From: an uncultured delta proteobacterium
GTDB taxonomy: Bacteria > Desulfobacterota > Desulfomonilia > UBA1062
Direction: 5' to 3'
Assembly: GCA_963752595.1 (NCBI GenBank)
Contig: CAVVYZ010000002.1
Coordinates: 256,001-320,000, forward strand
DNA: 64,000 nt
Below, piece after piece: positions 45,683-53,053 of this stretch. A model generated the notes under the pieces. It ran no database searches, was not told the DNA's origin, and saw only the letters and a program-made list of their open reading frames with translations. The stretch's first letter is position 1; each line of letters opens with the position of its first letter. Made by a program: the position numbers and the translations under genes.

Positions 45683-47329
45683 ATGGCGGATGTGGTAAAG
45701 GAAACAGAGTGTCTTATCATCGGGACCGGTATCGCAGGGGCTACGTGCGCATACATTGCAGCTCAATCAGGTTTAAAGGTCTGCCTCCTCACCAAGCGGT
45801 CGGACCCGACGGCAACGAACACGAACCGTGCCCAGGGGGGCATTGTGTATGCCGGCAATGGAGACAGCCCTGAACTCCTCAAGCACGACATCATGGAAGC
45901 AGGAAGGTATCTCAACAGCATCGAGGCTGTCGAGTACCTGTCCCAGAACGGCCCCAGAGTGGTCAAGAAAATCCTCATCGATGAGTTGAAGGTTAATTTT
46001 ACGCATCTCAAGGGTCCCGAGGACGAGAATTACGACCTCACCCGTGAGGGGGCGCACTCCATAAACCGCATCCTGTATTCTGCCGATCATACGGGACGGG
46101 AAATCGAAGAGGCTCTTATCGATGCACTGAAAAAACAGAGCAATGTAGAAATCATCACAAACGCCACGGTCATAGACCTCATCACCCTCCATCACCATTC
46201 AACGGATATCCAGTCCCGGTATATTCTGGAAGACAGGTGTGCGGGCGCATATGTATACATGGAGCACGCCAAGGAGGTGCTCACCGTACTGGCCCAGTAT
46301 ACGGTGCTGGCCACAGGAGGGGTCGGAGACATTTATCTCCACTCCACGAGCGAGAAGGGTACGGTGGGAGACGGCATCGTCATGGCAGAGAGAGCCGGGG
46401 CCAACGTCATCAACATGGAGTTCGTACAGTTCCACCCTACCACCCTCTACATACCGGGGGCGAGGAGATTCCTCATGTCCGAGGCTCTCAGGGGCGAAGG
46501 TGCGAGGCTGCTGAACCTGCGGGGCGAGTATTTCATGGACAAGTACAATCCCGGGCTCAAGGACCTTGCGCCGAGAGACGAAGTGACAATCGCCATCTGG
46601 GACGAAATGCTGGAAAACTCCGAGGAGCATGTCTTGCTCGATATAGCGAACTATGTGGATGAGGATATACCGGTGAGGTTTCCGAGCATTTATGCTACGT
46701 GCAAGGAGGCCGGAATCGATATCACGAAGGAACCTGTGCCCGTGGTCCCTGCTGCACACTACCTGTGCGGAGGTGTTCAGGTGAACACCCTCGGAAGGAC
46801 TACCCTGAAAGGTCTCTATGCAGTGGGAGAGGTTTCTTGTACCGGCCTCCACGGGGCGAACAGGCTTGCATCAACCTCGCTTCTCGAAGGGCTCGTCTGG
46901 GGCTGTTATGCAGCCAAGGATATCGCGGTAAAGATCAATGCCGGAGAGACCATCGGGTTTAAGATGCTCAAGTCCGTACGGGACTGGATCCCCACCGGGA
47001 ATGTGGAAAATGAGGACCCGGCCCTCATCGCCCAGGACTGGGTTTCCATCAAGAGCACTATGTGGAATTACGTGGGCATTGTCAGGACAAGACAGAGGCT
47101 CAAGATAGCTATCGAAGACTTAAGGCATATGTATCTGCGCATCGAGGATTTCTACCGGGAAACGCCGGTATCGAAGGATATCATCAGCCTTTTCCACGGG
47201 ACGCAGTCCGCGATCCTGGTGGCGGATGCAGCGCTCAGGAACCAGAATTCCATCGGGTGCCACTTCCTCCGCGACTATAAAGGCTCGCCCCGGTCATATC
47301 CCGCGTTGCGGCGTGACGATAACCGCTGA
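45683..47329 (+). CDS. nadB: L-aspartate oxidase
   Basis: IIGTGIAG, AQGGI, REGAHS, EFVQFHPT, SEALRGEG, LAPRD, AHYLCGG, GLHGANRLASTSLLEG; adjacent to nadA. Confidence 0.95.
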   Translation: MADVVKETECLIIGTGIAGATCAYIAAQSGLKVCLLTKRSDPTATNTNRAQGGIVYAGNGDSPELLKHDIMEAGRYLNSIEAVEYLSQNGPRVVKKILIDELKVNFTHLKGPEDENYDLTREGAHSINRILYSADHTGREIEEALIDALKKQSNVEIITNATVIDLITLHHHSTDIQSRYILEDRCAGAYVYMEHAKEVLTVLAQYTVLATGGVGDIYLHSTSEKGTVGDGIVMAERAGANVINMEFVQFHPTTLYIPGARRFLMSEALRGEGARLLNLRGEYFMDKYNPGLKDLAPRDEVTIAIWDEMLENSEEHVLLDIANYVDEDIPVRFPSIYATCKEAGIDITKEPVPVVPAAHYLCGGVQVNTLGRTTLKGLYAVGEVSCTGLHGANRLASTSLLEGLVWGCYAAKDIAVKINAGETIGFKMLKSVRDWIPTGNVENEDPALIAQDWVSIKSTMWNYVGIVRTRQRLKIAIEDLRHMYLRIEDFYRETPVSKDIISLFHGTQSAILVADAALRNQNSIGCHFLRDYKGSPRSYPALRRDDNR

Positions 47330-47339
47330 TAAGTTTCTT

Positions 47340-47376
47340 TATGGTCATATTGCCATACTATGGCGCGATAACCCTT
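47340..47376. promoter_or_regulatory. Putative enhancer (UAS) palindromes for sigma-54 promoter 1
   Basis: TATGG-N8-CCATA (47340-47357) and weaker TATGG-N8-CCCTT (47359-47376). Confidence 0.45.
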
Positions 47377-47462
47377 TCTTTTGCAGTGGTATTGTTCCCT
47401 TACCCTGGATCTTAGGTGAATTAATTACTTAAATATCAAATAGATATACGATACATTCTCTG

Positions 47463-47478
47463 TGGCACGCCATTCGCA
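47463..47478 (+). promoter_or_regulatory. Sigma-54 (-24/-12) promoter of the zinc-finger ORF
   Basis: TGGCACG-CCAT-TCGCA, exact GG-N10-GC spacing. Confidence 0.7.
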
Positions 47479-47518
47479 TTTACCCTGGCCAGCAAATAGA
47501 AGGTAATCGGAGAAAAGA

Positions 47519-47815
47519 ATGAGTTCTCAGGAAAAGTCAGAGAGACTCTGTGATATATGCTCGTCCATAGATGTTGCGTCGACGTGCGAAGGCTGCGGAA
47601 AGTCATTGTGCAAAAGATGCCGGAGCATGGAAATATACGGCTCAAAGAATCTGGAAGTCACGGTTAAGTACTTCTGCCCGTCCTGCAGCAAGAACCCGAA
47701 GATCAATCCATCCTTGGGTTGTAAAAAGATATTCGGGCTCGAACACGTCACCGATATGGTCAATCAGGACCAGTCCAAAGGCAGCCGGTTCAAGATCAAA
47801 CTCAAGATGCCTTGA
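47519..47815 (+). CDS. Small zinc-finger-like protein with four CxxC pairs
   Basis: CDIC-x8-CEGC-x4-CKRC-x18-CPSC; GGAG RBS; sigma-54 promoter upstream. Confidence 0.8.
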   Translation: MSSQEKSERLCDICSSIDVASTCEGCGKSLCKRCRSMEIYGSKNLEVTVKYFCPSCSKNPKINPSLGCKKIFGLEHVTDMVNQDQSKGSRFKIKLKMP

Positions 47816-47836
47816 TGCCGGAATAATAACAAAGGT

Positions 47837-47909
47837 TATGGCAGATACACCAGAGTATCTATGGTGCCGGGACCAAATCCCCCAAACCGTGTAGGGCCAA
47901 TAAGCCATA
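47837..47909. promoter_or_regulatory. Three putative enhancer (UAS) palindromes for sigma-54 promoter 2
   Basis: TATGG-N8-CCAGA (47837), TATGG-N8-CCAAA (47860), TAGGG-N8-CCATA (47892). Confidence 0.5.
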
Positions 47910-47968
47910 AGCCATGCATGGACTATAAATAAAAGACATAATAACAATGACATATAAATTATCAAGAG

Positions 47969-47985
47969 CTGGCATGCATTTCGCT
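47969..47985 (+). promoter_or_regulatory. Sigma-54 (-24/-12) promoter with no convincing downstream CDS
   Basis: CTGGCATG-CATT-TCGCT, exact GG-N10-GC spacing; AT-rich tract upstream. Confidence 0.65.
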
Positions 47986-47995
47986 ATTTCATAGA

Positions 47996-48331
47996 GATAG
48001 CAGGGGCTTTTTAGTTCTTTGATAAAGAATGAAAAACATAGGAAAGATCGTAACACAGAGTGCAGAAGATTTACTAAAGGCATGCGCATCGGCTCGATGA
48101 CTGCATATAAGGAAAACAGGCAGTGCGGATATTCTAAGTATGGAATATCTACTGGGGTGATGTCGTTCCCCTTTTATGCCGTGAGGCAGTGGCAAGCCCT
48201 GTAAGCCGCATGCCTAAGATCCATCAGTACTCTTTACAAAGCTTAACTGAAACCTCCTTTTTGATGCCAGAAGAAGGGACAGATTGATACTCCGCTACTG
48301 TCCCCCACACCTTATCTTCTGGCTTTTTTTT
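47996..48331 (+). ncRNA. Candidate sigma-54-dependent structured small RNA (about 335 nt), family not recognised
   Basis: Promoter upstream, nested multi-stem domain 48078-48215, ACCTCCTT tract, terminator at 48266-48331, no good ORF. Confidence 0.5.
48266..48331 (+). terminator. Intrinsic terminator with internal stem
   Basis: GCCAGAAGA / TCTTCTGGC stem enclosing GGGACAG / CTGTCCC, followed by T8. Confidence 0.75.
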
Positions 48332-48453
48332 GTCCTCATGGTCCCATTCTCCAAATACCGTGATGGATTGGGGAAAATACCTTGACAATAGGCTTAAGTT
48401 TCATTAATAGCTCTTCATCTTTCTCTTAAGAAGAGAAACTCAGGAGTACAACT

Positions 48454-48774
48454 ATGTATGCAGTGATAAAGACTGGCGGGAAACAGTATAAGGTCGAAGA
48501 AGGCGACAGAATCCAGATCGAGAAGCTCGAAGCTGCGAGCGGCGATACGGTGACTTTCGAAGAAGTCCTCTTCGTCGGAGGAGACGAATATAAACTCGGC
48601 GCACCAAAGCTCCGGGGCGCTACGGTCAGCGGCACGATCGTACGGCAGATGCGGGCAAAGAAGATCATCGTTTTCAAGATGAAGAGAAGGAAAGGGTACC
48701 ATAAGAAAAAGGGCCACCGGCAGTACCTTACCGAGATCTTTATCACGAAGATCGATGCAGGCAAGGAGGCGTAA
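48454..48774 (+). CDS. rplU: 50S ribosomal protein L21
   Basis: [14 protein letters not shown]...KKGHRQ. Confidence 0.98.
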
Positions 48775-48777
48775 TCC

Positions 48778-49038
48778 ATGGCTCACAAGAAATCAGGCGG
48801 AACTTCCCGCAACGGACGCGACACAGCAGGGAAACGGCTTGGAGTAAAACGCTTCGACGGCCAGCAGGTGAAGGCAGGCAGCATTATCGTGCGCCAGAGG
48901 GGGACTAAGGTCCATCCTGGTCAGAACGTCGGCTGCGGCAGGGATTATACCCTGTTTGCCCTGACTGACGGTGTCGTGAAGTTTGAAACACTCTTCAACA
49001 AGAAAAAGAGGGTGAGCATCGTCGAAACCGCTGTATAA
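48778..49038 (+). CDS. rpmA: 50S ribosomal protein L27
   Basis: [29 protein letters not shown]. Confidence 0.98.
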
Positions 49039-49041
49039 AAC

Positions 49042-50037
49042 ATGGACTTTATCGATGAGTCCAAGATTTATGTAAAGGCCGGTGACGGCGGTAACGGTTG
49101 TTGTTCGTTTCGCAGAGAGAAATTTGTTCCCAAAGGCGGCCCTGACGGCGGCGACGGTGGAAAAGGCGGGGATATAATCATCGAAGCATCCCCCCACTTC
49201 CACACCCTGCTCGATCAGCGCTACCATCCGCATTACAAATCCCAAAGAGGGCAGCACGGCAAGGGAAAGAACTGTACCGGGAGGTCGGGTGATGACCTGA
49301 TCATTCATGTTCCCGTGGGTACGGTCGTAAAAGACTATGCGAGTGGAGAGATCATTGCCGATCTCGTCACGGAAGGCCAGACGATCGTCATTGCGCGGGG
49401 AGGAGGCGGCGGCAGGGGCAATGCAAAGTTCGCTACGCCCACGCTGCAGGCCCCGCGGTACTGCGAGCACGGGAAACCCGGGGAAGAAAAGGATTTTCTC
49501 CTCGAGCTCAAGCTCCTGGCCGATGTCGGCCTCGTCGGATTTCCCAATGCAGGAAAGTCCACGCTCATCTCGCGGGTATCGAGCGCACGGCCCAAGATTG
49601 CCGATTATCCCTTCACCACCCTTGCCCCCAACCTCGGTATGGTCAGGTGGAAGAATAACGATTTCGTCATGGCGGACATCCCGGGCATTATCGAAGGGGC
49701 GCACGAGGGGGTCGGCCTGGGCCTGAAGTTCCTCAGGCACATCGAGAGGACCAGGATCATTGTCTATATGATCGATCTCTCTCCATTCACGCAGCGGGAC
49801 CCGAAAGAGGAATTCATCATCCTGAGGCGAGAGCTCGAAGCGTATTCTCCCGAGCTTGTCACCCGCAAGCAGATCGTGATCCTGAACAAATGCGATCTTG
49901 CCGAGGCAAGAGGGAGGGCGAAAGACGTAGTTGCCTTTGTAAAAGACAAGGGGTATCCTTGCTTTATCGCTTCAGCCGCTACCGGTGAAGGGATAGATAC
50001 TGTGCTGGATGAGATGATAAAGGACCTCAATGGATAA
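49042..50037 (+). CDS. obgE: GTPase ObgE/CgtA
   Basis: FRREKFVPKGGPDGGDGG, GFPNAGKS, ADYPFTT, DIPG, NKCD. Confidence 0.97.
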   Translation: MDFIDESKIYVKAGDGGNGCCSFRREKFVPKGGPDGGDGGKGGDIIIEASPHFHTLLDQRYHPHYKSQRGQHGKGKNCTGRSGDDLIIHVPVGTVVKDYASGEIIADLVTEGQTIVIARGGGGGRGNAKFATPTLQAPRYCEHGKPGEEKDFLLELKLLADVGLVGFPNAGKSTLISRVSSARPKIADYPFTTLAPNLGMVRWKNNDFVMADIPGIIEGAHEGVGLGLKFLRHIERTRIIVYMIDLSPFTQRDPKEEFIILRRELEAYSPELVTRKQIVILNKCDLAEARGRAKDVVAFVKDKGYPCFIASAATGEGIDTVLDEMIKDLNG

Positions 50038-51175: not shown

Positions 51176-52425
51176 GCGAGAGTCTGGTCGTGAGCATTGC
51201 GAGGAACGCAAGGAGGGCATCGAGATCTCTCGTGAGCCTCTCCAGCGTACGTAAGGCGGATGCATTGAAGCATATGGCAAAGAGCCTGCGGGAGAATGCA
51301 CAAACACTAAAAGAAGAAAACGCAAAGGACCTGGAAGAGGCAAGAAAGAGCGGTCTTCCCCCCGCCATGATCGACAGGCTTACCTTGAACGACAAGACCA
51401 TCGAGGCTATGGCCGGAGCACTGGAAGAGATAGCTGAACTGCCTGACCCTGTCGGGAAGATCACCGGCATGTCCAGAAGGCCCAACGGACTCATGGTGGG
51501 GAAGATGAAGATCCCCATCGGGGTGGTGGCCATCATCTACGAGTCAAGGCCCAACGTTACGGCCGATGCAGCAGGTTTATGCCTCAAGTCCGGCAACGCC
51601 GTCATCCTCCGGGGAGGATCGGAAGCGATCCACTCGAACAGGGCCGTCGCTGGTGTTCTGAAGAAGTCTCTGGAAGCCTCAGGCATCGATCCGGATGTAA
51701 TAGGCTTCATCCCTGTAACGGACAGGCAGGCGATCTTCGAGATGCTCACCCTGGAGCAGTACATCGACCTCGTCATCCCCCGCGGAGGGGAGGGGCTCAT
51801 CCGGAGCGTGGTCGAGAATTCACGGATACCGGTTCTGAAACACTATAAGGGTGTATGCCACATCTTCGTGGACAGGGACGCCGATCTGGAGAAGGCCTAC
51901 AGGATCTGCCTCAATGCAAAGGTCCAGAGACCGGGCGTCTGCAATGCCATGGAGACCCTGCTGGTCGATGAGGCAATAGCGCATGAATTCCTCCCGGAGA
52001 TGATCAGCATCTTCCGGCATCACGGGGTAGAGATCAGGGGGTGCGGGAAAACGCGCGAGATCGTGAGCGATGTAGTCCCTGCTACGGAAAACGACTGGTA
52101 TGAGGAATTTCTGGATCTCATCCTTGCGGTAAAGGTGAGCGGCGATATGCAGGAAGCCATCGACCATATCGAGCAGTACGGCTCGGACCACACCGAGGCC
52201 ATCATCACGGAAAATTACACGCGTGCCATGGAATTCCTCAGGCAGGTGGACTCCTCCACCGTGCTCGTCAACGCAAGCACGCGGTTTTCGGACGGGGGAG
52301 AATTCGGGCTGGGGGCAGAGGTGGGGATCAGCACCTCAAAAATCCATGCATACGGGCCCATGGGCATAGAAGACCTCACCATCGGAAAATTCATCTGCTT
52401 CGGGGACGGCCAGATCAGGACATGA
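51172..52425 (+). CDS. proA: Gamma-glutamyl phosphate reductase
   Basis: [55 protein letters not shown]. Confidence 0.97.
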
Positions 52426-53053
52426 GGCTCGGTATCTTCGGCGGCACATTCAATCCCATCCACTTCGGCCACCTGAGGGCCGCCGAAGAGGTCAGGCAGG
52501 ATATCGGTCTCGAACGAGGTTGTTTTCGTTCCGTCTTATATCCCGCCCCACAAGGAGCTTGCAGGAGAGGTTTCAGCAGAAAAGCGCCTCGAGATCGTAC
52601 GGCTGGCCATACGGAGCAATCCTTGTTTTACCCTCTCATCTTTCGAGGTCGACCAGGGGGGTAATTCCTACTCCATCAGGACCATAGAGCACATACGGGC
52701 AGACTACGGCATCACCCCATACTTCATCCTGGGGCAGGACGCCTTTAATGAAATATCCACCTGGTATGAGTCCAGGAAGCTCTTCGACCTTGCTCATTTC
52801 GTGGTCATGTCACGCCCCAATGCAAGGCGGCCTGAACTCGGAGAAGTGCTGGGAGAGAAAGCCGAACTGTTTGCAAAGAGCGGGGACGGCTATGTGAACA
52901 GCTCCGGGAACAAGATAATATATCGTAGAGGTGACCCCGCTCGATATCTCATCGTCTCTTATCCGTGAGGTCTGCCGGCAGGGGAGATCCATCAGATACC
53001 TGGTGCCTGAGGAGGTTGAAGAATACATGAGGAACGAAAGGATGTACGAATAG
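52422..53053 (+). CDS. nadD: Nicotinate-nucleotide adenylyltransferase (apparent frameshifts near 52520 and 52920)
   Basis: [40 protein letters not shown]; conserved proA-nadD-rsfS-rlmH order. Confidence 0.92.

Follow-up and report, generated by a model that had tools for sequence, protein, structure and literature searches.

What is encoded in the gap between a small cysteine-rich protein gene and the ribosomal protein gene rplU in an uncultured member of the Desulfomonilia? The stretch analysed here (the window, 64,000 nucleotides, G000:C2:256001-320000; all coordinates below are window positions unless another contig is named) had been read in a first-pass annotation, which proposed that the gap holds a structured small RNA. 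The element sits between a 98-aa ORF and rplU (48454; Pfam L21), with all three on the plus strand, and the RNA is predicted to start at about 47996, downstream of a sigma-54-type site (Table 1). Our comparison with homologues indicates that the core of the proposal, a sigma-54-dependent, non-coding, trans-acting RNA with an anti-Shine-Dalgarno (anti-SD) seed that is possibly processed, is well supported by sequence, while several structural details are not. Most likely, the RNA represents a real, lineage-restricted and previously unlisted family of a known mechanistic kind.

Table 1. Features of the locus in window coordinates
Feature	Position	Strand	Remarks
Enhancer palindrome of the zinc-finger gene, TATGGT-N6-ACCATA type	47340..47357	.	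Upstream in 27/27 loci carrying the gene
Sigma-54-type promoter of the zinc-finger gene	47463..47478	+	27/27 loci
98-aa protein, 8 invariant Cys, weak FYVE/RIM-zinc-finger-like predicted fold	47519..47815	+	Promoter type as for the RNA
Three phased enhancer-binding-protein palindromes	47837-47854, 47860-47877, 47892-47909 (weaker)	.	133, 110 and 78 bp ahead of the promoter
Sigma-54-type -24/-12 promoter of the RNA	47970..47985	+	36/36 homologues with at least 330 nt upstream (4/40 P1 copies too short, left out); 0.2 in shuffles
Short conserved (G/U)(C/U)UCUUU motif near the RNA 5' end	48014..48020	+	21/38 homologues
Variable long irregular rod	48056..48233	+	Stems 48056-63/48227-33 (outer), 48078-86/48207-15 (first-pass), 48100-04/48186-90; corresponding stems built from differing sequences in relatives; missing in short homologues
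Conserved three-way junction capping the rod	48116..48184	+	From homologue comparison; helices GGCA 48119-22/TGCC 48177-80, GATATTC 48128-34/GAATATC 48143-49, GGGG 48154-57/CCCC 48168-71; strands ACU and UUUYA
Seed AACUGAA-ACCUCC-UUUUU	48245..48262	+	ACCUCCUUU identical to the 3' tail of the same genome's 16S rRNA
Terminator hairpin	48266..48323	+	Outer stem 48266-74/48315-23; inner stem 48276-82/48298-304; C-rich loop ACUCCGC 48289-95; C-rich 3' bulge CACACCU 48306-12
U8 tail	48324..48331	+	From sequence
Sigma-70-like rplU promoter, separate from the RNA	48382..48410	+	TTGACA...ATTAATAGC type; precedes rplU also at loci without the RNA (L021, L025, L026)

All strings quoted in the first-pass annotation are in place (AGGCATGCG at 48078, CGCATGCCT at 48207, CATCGGCTCGATG at 48087, GCATATAAGG at 48103, CCTTTTATGC at 48170, GATATTC at 48128, GAATATC at 48143, ACCTCCTT at 48252, and a T8 run ending at 48331), and the question is which of them matter. 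Judged by homologues, the conserved core is the 3' part of about 90 nt, consisting of the ACCUCCUUU seed, a long terminator hairpin with a C-rich loop and bulge, and U8. The folding signal likewise lies mostly in the 3' hairpin: the whole 336 nt fold better than 99/100 shuffles (z -2.91), with z values of -3.30 for the 3' 96 nt and -1.88 for the 5' 246 nt alone. A DNA search matched 26/61 relatives, chiefly over positions ~48224-48340, and a covariance model built from the 3' 92 positions recovered the module in 27/40 genomes of the family (24 strong, 3 weak; 1-10 copies per genome), the strong carriers belonging to genera g1, g3, g5, g10, g11 and g14. The predicted hairpin and U tail are kept across homologues, with the correction that the terminator is not branched; instead it comprises a stem, a 3'-side bulge, an inner stem and a loop. 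Covariation supports this module: across 69 distinct copies, pairing holds in 97.4% of cells and 8/14 pairs change on both sides, values reached by 0/500 shuffles in an alignment that was itself fitted to the model. The seed is located in a linker, and the hairpin loops of the family read ACUCCGC, CCUUCC or CCUCUC. The unpaired positions of the terminator hairpin are 37% C and 4% G, and 105/112 copies have loose C-rich motifs in the inner loop as well as in the bulge.

The module appears to be confined to one lineage. No copy was found below E 0.05 in 24 sister-family genomes (best E 0.054), and a 151-genome sample of the phylum yielded none beyond the family under strict filters; two phylum matches of a minimal pattern resemble ordinary terminators. 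Among 185,579 species genomes, a pattern scan returned 114 stretches. Testing 48 loci with the covariance model (45 from this set and 3 viral ones) left 30 that pass, and the matches in unrelated taxa and on three viral contigs all failed. Public records carrying the family are labelled Desulfomonilia, Deltaproteobacteria, Thermodesulfobacteriota, UBA1062 and Phox-21, among others, and these labels place the module in one family of Desulfomonilia. The earlier view that the RNA fits no riboswitch, 6S, SRP or tmRNA pattern agrees with a covariance-model check against Rfam 15, in which nothing reached the gathering threshold: the best score in positions 46500-49500 was 15.2 bits (E 4.8), and the best E value in twelve homologue loci was 0.7, all far short of gathering scores.

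Some relatives carry reduced or divergent versions. In g13 and g7, a shorter form keeps the seed and a U tail and has a small hairpin with an ACCU loop; this minimal form of about 55-60 nt (L311-L320 in G031 and G023; L313 in G017) exists in three distinct orthologous copies per g13 genome, and those of G031 are present twice, probably through duplication in the assembly. Weak model matches (L038, at G000:C30:66797-66876, L102, L082, L083 and L103) have an GCCAGAAGA-type terminator and an altered or missing seed and are possibly further divergent classes.

The 112 non-redundant copies fall into three classes, P1 (41 copies, including that of the window), P2 (37) and P3 (33), with one other. 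The -10-like hexamers just upstream suggest a length of about 105 nt for P2 and P3, both of which open with a short hairpin, whereas the predicted P1 transcripts measure 126 to 336 nt with a 5' part of 41 to 249 nt. The seed flanks differ by class. Neighboring genes of the module copies vary and face in both orientations, siblings often being convergent or divergent to both neighbors, which marks the siblings as stand-alone units. The host genome G000 has one copy per class (the window's P1; C1:215756-215847, minus strand; C17:21849-21935, plus strand) plus one weak match. Its P2 copy (L035) is divergent from a two-gene pair, presumably encoding an ammonium transporter and a PII-like protein, in a neighborhood shared with one close relative (L105) only. 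In G020 and G035 (g10; L069-L083), P2 has expanded to bring the family to 9-10 copies per genome, some in tandem about 0.8-1.3 kb apart, and the seed is changed to GCCCUCC in several.

The classes also differ in their predicted control. The sigma-54 promoter that had been proposed for the window's RNA recurs in every P1 homologue with sufficient upstream DNA (Table 1) and in 0/35 P2 and 0/33 P3 copies. At least one TATGGT-N6-ACCATA palindrome is found in 38/38 P1 homologues (3.2 in shuffles), and one lies 109-113 bp upstream in 36/38, often with partners at ~78 and ~134 bp; since the consensus was derived from the very sequences that were counted, just the fixed spacing is independent support. 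A loose IHF-like pattern, scanned without a control, matches 12/38 promoters. P3 copies instead carry a TGTAGG-N6-CCTACA-like box (24/33 vs 2.2 in shuffles), mostly 115-118 bp ahead of the seed, a consensus that in its exact form is not enriched in P2 (3/35 vs 2.4). This box resembles the GacA site that drives Rsm RNAs, TGTAAG-N6-CTTACA (PMC4950607). In G000, the P3 copy (C17:21744-21935; L268, L037) comes immediately after the genes of a PAS/HisKA_3 kinase and of a LuxR-type response regulator and has a perfect TGTAGG-N6-CCTACA palindrome; elsewhere in that genome the pattern occurs at one site only, inside a repeat.

Six sigma-54-like sites in G000 are accompanied by a palindrome scoring at least 10/12. 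Four of them look genuine, namely those of the RNA, the 98-aa gene, a CoA-transferase operon (C2:79334) and a 75-aa Cys-rich paralogue (C19:107659). In the two-subunit CoA-transferase operon (G000:C2:79200-81304; L267) the -24/-12 site is identical and the enhancer palindrome perfect, and the operon likely belongs to the same regulon as the RNA. The two small Cys-rich proteins (47519-47815, and L266:420-647 on G000:C19), both under the same kind of sigma-54 promoter and enhancer motif, are family-restricted, weakly resemble FYVE/RIM zinc fingers in fold and fall in no curated family. The gene content of G000 includes rpoN, 30 matches to the enhancer-protein domain, Hfq, CsrA, FliW and two RNase E/G proteins; the activating enhancer protein was not singled out among the 30. 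Several of these enhancer-protein genes are in pieces, and an ORF at 52422-52664, which we take to be nadD-like, breaks off after 80 aa; together, these suggest uncorrected assembly indels. Hfq occurs in 59/61 relatives, including genomes without the RNA, and so does not discriminate between carriers and non-carriers. Near position 309020 of G000:C1 there are repeated GTGTTCCCCAC...GTGGGGATGAACCG units, which to us look like a type I-E CRISPR array.

The 98-aa protein gene upstream shares its promoter type with the RNA. It was found in 27/30 rplU-linked loci tested, and the three loci without it also lack the RNA; the protein occurs in 33/36 genomes of the family and 0/24 of the sister family. 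Its model has a pLDDT of 70, with the best RIM/FYVE zinc-finger likeness at Z 5.5 and rmsd 2.4 over 50 residues. Foldseek against the PDB gave nothing at E <= 0.001, Pfam zinc-finger matches stayed below threshold, and searches for viral relatives and an NCBIfam family found none; the Atlas clusters are unnamed, apart from one with 36% zf-B_box. The C-terminal tail of the protein is conserved (FGL..VTDMVN, FKIKLK).

The proximity of the two genes raises the thought that the module acts mainly in cis, terminating or stabilizing the 3' end of the zinc-finger mRNA and insulating it from rplU. Indeed, in two genomes the module directly follows a coding sequence: the G022 copy, which scores weakly, is found ~60 nt past the zinc-finger stop codon, and in G013 the module directly follows an extra 76-aa ORF (L020:1269-1499), located between it and the zinc-finger gene and lacking homologues in the fetched loci or G000. 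In neither case was a second sigma-54 promoter seen. In the interval from the zinc-finger gene to the RNA promoter no terminator was detected, by a scan that overlooked the long terminator of the RNA itself as well. Against a role in cis, all homologues tested have a dedicated promoter and enhancer, the siblings stand alone, and a terminator would have no need of an invariant seed, loop and bulge. We consider a mainly cis-acting module very unlikely. Rather, the arrangement in G013 and G022, with the module at the 3' end of the zinc-finger transcript, fits release by processing. The module can, we infer without a tree, act as a 3'-UTR-derived RNA, to which P1 adds a second copy of the same promoter.

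What, then, is the function of the 5' part, which the first-pass annotation regarded as the main structured domain? Predicted transcripts as short as 126 nt show that the proposed ~140-nt domain is dispensable for family membership; it is a lineage-specific add-on, although a conserved fold does exist within it in the form of a three-way junction. Most of the helices read from the single sequence did not survive the comparison. A perfect stem of at least 9 bp, such as the one thought to close the domain, arises in 23/300 dinucleotide shuffles, and its sequence is kept in 5/38 homologues; the CATCG-GCT-CGATG hairpin is kept in 2/38 and the GCATATAAGG/CCTTTTATGC helix (GCATATA/TT.ATGC) in 3/38, and the alignment keeps neither the CAGT/ACTG helix nor the GTGA loop. 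The GATATTC/GAATATC hairpin, by contrast, is retained as an arm of the junction. The stems beneath the junction are built from different sequences in different relatives. In L017 and L259 a strand CCC(C)UUUCAUG is kept without the junction, apparently near the tip of another rod, where it may be a further seed.

Conceivably, the rod and junction form a sensor of a metabolite or of the zinc-finger protein that gates release of the 3' module, an idea compatible with the mechanism that we favor below. The 14 aligned homologues all share the junction strands ACUGGGG and UUU.AUG without change, and L022, from genus g5 outside the training set, scores 43 bits while both sides are changed in four pairs (GGCA/UGCC to AGCC/GGCU; GAUAU/AUAUC to GAUGC/GCAUC). 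Moreover, the zinc-finger gene next door has the same promoter type in all loci carrying it, and in Rhodobacter the small adjacent protein CcaF1 helps the CcsR RNAs to mature (PMC8034643), a precedent for a small neighboring protein in a part that the zinc-finger protein may play here. However, the junction pattern is present in just 14/38 homologues, and those of 126-135 nt lack any such domain. The 14 training sequences pair in 92.3% of cells with covariation no greater than in shuffles (241/500), and forcing the junction fold is free in 7/15 sequences and costs 0.2-6.1 kcal/mol in the other 8, the window's lying 4.9 kcal/mol above the minimum. The junction model gave one match per genome, always inside this RNA, in 14/91 genomes, with three more at E 0.03-0.04, and the zinc-finger gene is retained even where the junction has been lost. 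A sensor of this kind is thus improbable in our estimate. A riboswitch was also considered and rejected, as the junction is not found at other kinds of locus in the 91 genomes and rplU has its own promoter. We would rather see the 5' rod and three-way junction as an accessory part, likely a handle for processing or protein binding.

The claim that the anti-SD tract is exposed holds for the 3' fragment, in which ACCUCC is unpaired with a probability of 0.98, and fails for the full transcript (0.28). The same is seen throughout P1: ACCUCC is mostly paired in 29/38 full-length folds and in 0/38 3' fragments. Masking of the seed by the 5' part looks mostly like a composition effect: it beats shuffles in 8/38 homologues when the first 30 nt are considered (mostly near-duplicates) and in 2/38 for the whole 5' part. 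With the seed mostly paired in full-length folds and free in 3' fragments, but masked beyond shuffles in only those 8/38, release of the 3' module by processing is no more than plausible. Elsewhere in G000, the ORF C21:53667(-) is presumably of the RapZ/YvcJ family, a possible adaptor for sRNA processing.

The locus might instead specify a small peptide, or the antitoxin of a type I toxin-antitoxin pair whose toxin is read from the opposite strand. The RNA region of the window does contain a 61-aa ORF with a TTG start (48019-48204), and the opposite strand reads AAGGAGG. Yet SD-led sense ORFs of at least 15 aa occur in just 5/38 homologues and are mutually unrelated, in keeping with the earlier judgment that there is no convincing ORF; antisense SD-led ORFs of at least 15 aa occur in 17/110 copies and differ in start, length and sequence, and no Pfam match was obtained at E <= 0.001. 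As neither a sense nor an antisense ORF is conserved, we rejected both readings and rate their probability as very low.

Which mRNAs could such a seed address? Scans for single-site targets produced no outlier, and a search of 40 genomes for a 14-nt match to the seed complement showed none that is kept at the same gene throughout. The top predicted target, found post hoc after five patterns, is the mRNA of a PrpE/Acs-like acyl-CoA ligase (G000:C16:45161; best NCBIfam matches to propionate- and acetate-CoA ligases), whose gene has its own sigma-54-type site. Its 62-nt leader can form 11 perfect pairs with the seed across the SD and 11-12 pairs with the bulge. Scored for pairing at both sites, this 5' UTR ranks 1/3167 genes (-43.0 vs -34.5 kcal/mol for the next), with a permutation P of 0.003 and 0/25 shuffled-bulge controls reaching the score. 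Among the homologues, of which 30 of 39 matches were examined and which as relatives are not independent, the SD extension GG[AG]GGTTT[CT] is kept in 7/8 from g1, 3/4 from g10 and 1/2 from g11 (11/14 together), and in 0/7 from g14, 0/2 from g3 and g5 and 0/7 from other genera without the full family; genome-wide it is present at 20/1021 GG[AG]GG sites. Genus g14 has the same seed, yet its ligase lacks the extension. The bulge site is kept in 4/30 orthologues, and the G-rich site of the ligase leader can pair within its own hairpin. We therefore treat the ligase mRNA as a tentative target, about which we have somewhat more doubt than confidence.

Extending the two-site pattern to 52 genomes gave many matches to the RNA's own antisense strand or to coding sequence, and a reversed control matched as well. 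Further matches in 5' UTRs were limited to a gene in two g1 genomes that we take to be hydroxyacyl-CoA-dehydrogenase-like, the best G000 homologue of which is without a two-site match, a presumably AsmA-like gene in two g14 genomes, and one gene in the non-carrier G018.

In the absence of a single-site outlier, one might suppose that the RNAs titrate a protein, Hfq or one that binds C-rich RNA, and that copies under different regulators serve dosage, as for CrcZ/CrcY or Rsm. Up to 10 copies per genome, short motifs repeated in unpaired places and the closeness of the P3 box to the site driving Rsm RNAs (PMC4950607, as above) would all suit such a role. Titration does not readily account for motifs that complement the SD, one being equal to the 16S tail, for seed flanks that are specific to each class, or for a two-site candidate that stands out as the ligase does; GGA, moreover, is not enriched (106 vs 115 +/- 9). 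On this evidence titration seems unlikely to us, albeit the least so of the alternatives. Its special case of a Csr/Rsm sponge was rejected, as the 3' hairpins of all 112 copies are free of unpaired GGA and the 5' parts are not GGA-enriched. In L032 and L109, csrA lies directly after a flgK-like gene, with fliW on another contig.

The reading that we prefer, and consider probable, is that of a trans-acting small RNA whose 3' module pairs with SD regions via exposed C-rich motifs and represses translation. The RNA, both zinc-finger genes (the upstream one and a second) and the CoA-transferase operon would be turned on by one enhancer-binding protein. The primary transcript of ~336 nt would probably be cut, freeing a module of ~100 nt that resembles the short siblings. 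Hfq would probably bind the U-rich stretches: the RNA has Hfq-type features in its terminator with a U tail and the U-rich stretch ahead of it, and an Hfq gene is present. The seed would then pair with ribosome-binding sites that contain GGAGG, and preference would come from its 5' flank and from the bulge.

A bolder scheme joins the siblings of these syntrophic Desulfomonilia in one network. Acyl-CoA activation would be throttled by anti-SD RNAs under the joint control of a sigma-54 enhancer protein and a GacA-like regulator, and the sigma-54 sibling would be a gated precursor whose rod with its junction binds the co-expressed FYVE-like zinc finger or a metabolite to control release of the 3' module. 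This scheme is a long shot; if true, the sensing module would be new, and so would the class of bacterial zinc fingers, one that binds RNA. Ca. Phosphitivorax species are reported to be common syntrophic butyrate oxidizers in digesters (PMC7082340), and the available text of that study does not mention small or non-coding RNA. Likewise, searches of open papers found no description of this RNA or of sRNAs from this lineage. For organisms whose regulation is unstudied, the family supplies a concrete regulator, promoter motifs and a candidate acyl-CoA ligase target. It also suggests how a module of a 3' UTR may come to have a promoter of its own and a structured extension at its 5' end.

How does the family relate to known systems? 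It has the features of sigma-54-dependent sRNAs: a conserved -24/-12 promoter, upstream activator sites, rpoN and enhancer-protein genes. The Qrr RNAs of the Vibrionaceae are sigma-54-driven siblings with a promoter common to all copies, whereas here one class only has sigma-54 (0/68 copies of the other two). With RsmY/RsmZ/CsrB the family shares a GacA-like box in one sibling class and the presence of CsrA; it differs in lacking unpaired GGA in the 3' hairpin, and FliW is present in G000. NrsZ of Pseudomonas aeruginosa depends on RpoN and an enhancer protein and is processed to short functional modules, of which there are three similar ones with an ACAGGCAG loop, and activates rhlA (PMC4253122). 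Our RNA resembles it in its predicted dependence on sigma-54 and an enhancer protein and in its probable processing, but has a single C-rich 3' module. Pxr of Myxococcus xanthus, which needs a sigma-54 response regulator and is processed from longer to shorter forms (PMC10217877), likewise combines a deltaproteobacterial host with sigma-54. In contrast to Pxr, our RNA has no Rfam match to that family, and its neighbors are the zinc-finger gene and rplU rather than an adjacent sensor/regulator pair.

C-rich anti-SD sibling sRNAs have been described from Firmicutes, Actinobacteria and Alphaproteobacteria. Cuckoo RNAs consist of 2-4 adjacent hairpins, each with CCUCCUCCC (PMC4615179), and CcsR1-4 are cut by RNase E from the 3' UTR of a small adjacent protein gene in Rhodobacter (PMC8034643). 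The family resembles cuckoo RNAs, CcsR and NfeR in its anti-SD motifs and its tie to a small adjacent protein gene. However, its motifs differ among themselves, the main one lies in the linker and no loop has CCUCCUCCC; the neighbor, too, is an 8-Cys zinc finger and not a DUF1127 protein. LhrC1-5 of Listeria monocytogenes are multi-copy RNAs of ~110 nt whose expression depends on a two-component system. They have three CU-rich sites (loop, single-stranded stretch and terminator), every one of which binds an SD region (PMC4132741). Here, too, there are several independent copies (1-10 per genome) with C-rich motifs in the single-stranded stretch, loop and terminator (105/112). Unlike LhrC, these RNAs show no sequence match to that family (Rfam negative) and so do not belong to it proper; the siblings are scattered, answer to at least two predicted regulator types, include one sigma-54 class with a long 5' extension, and reside in a Gram-negative anaerobe. 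By analogy, the mechanism is most likely that of LhrC or cuckoo RNAs, in a member of neither family. What is new, as read from the genomes, is the RNA family itself, its control split between a putative sigma-54 enhancer protein and a GacA-like box, its link to a zinc-finger gene, and its accessory three-way junction.
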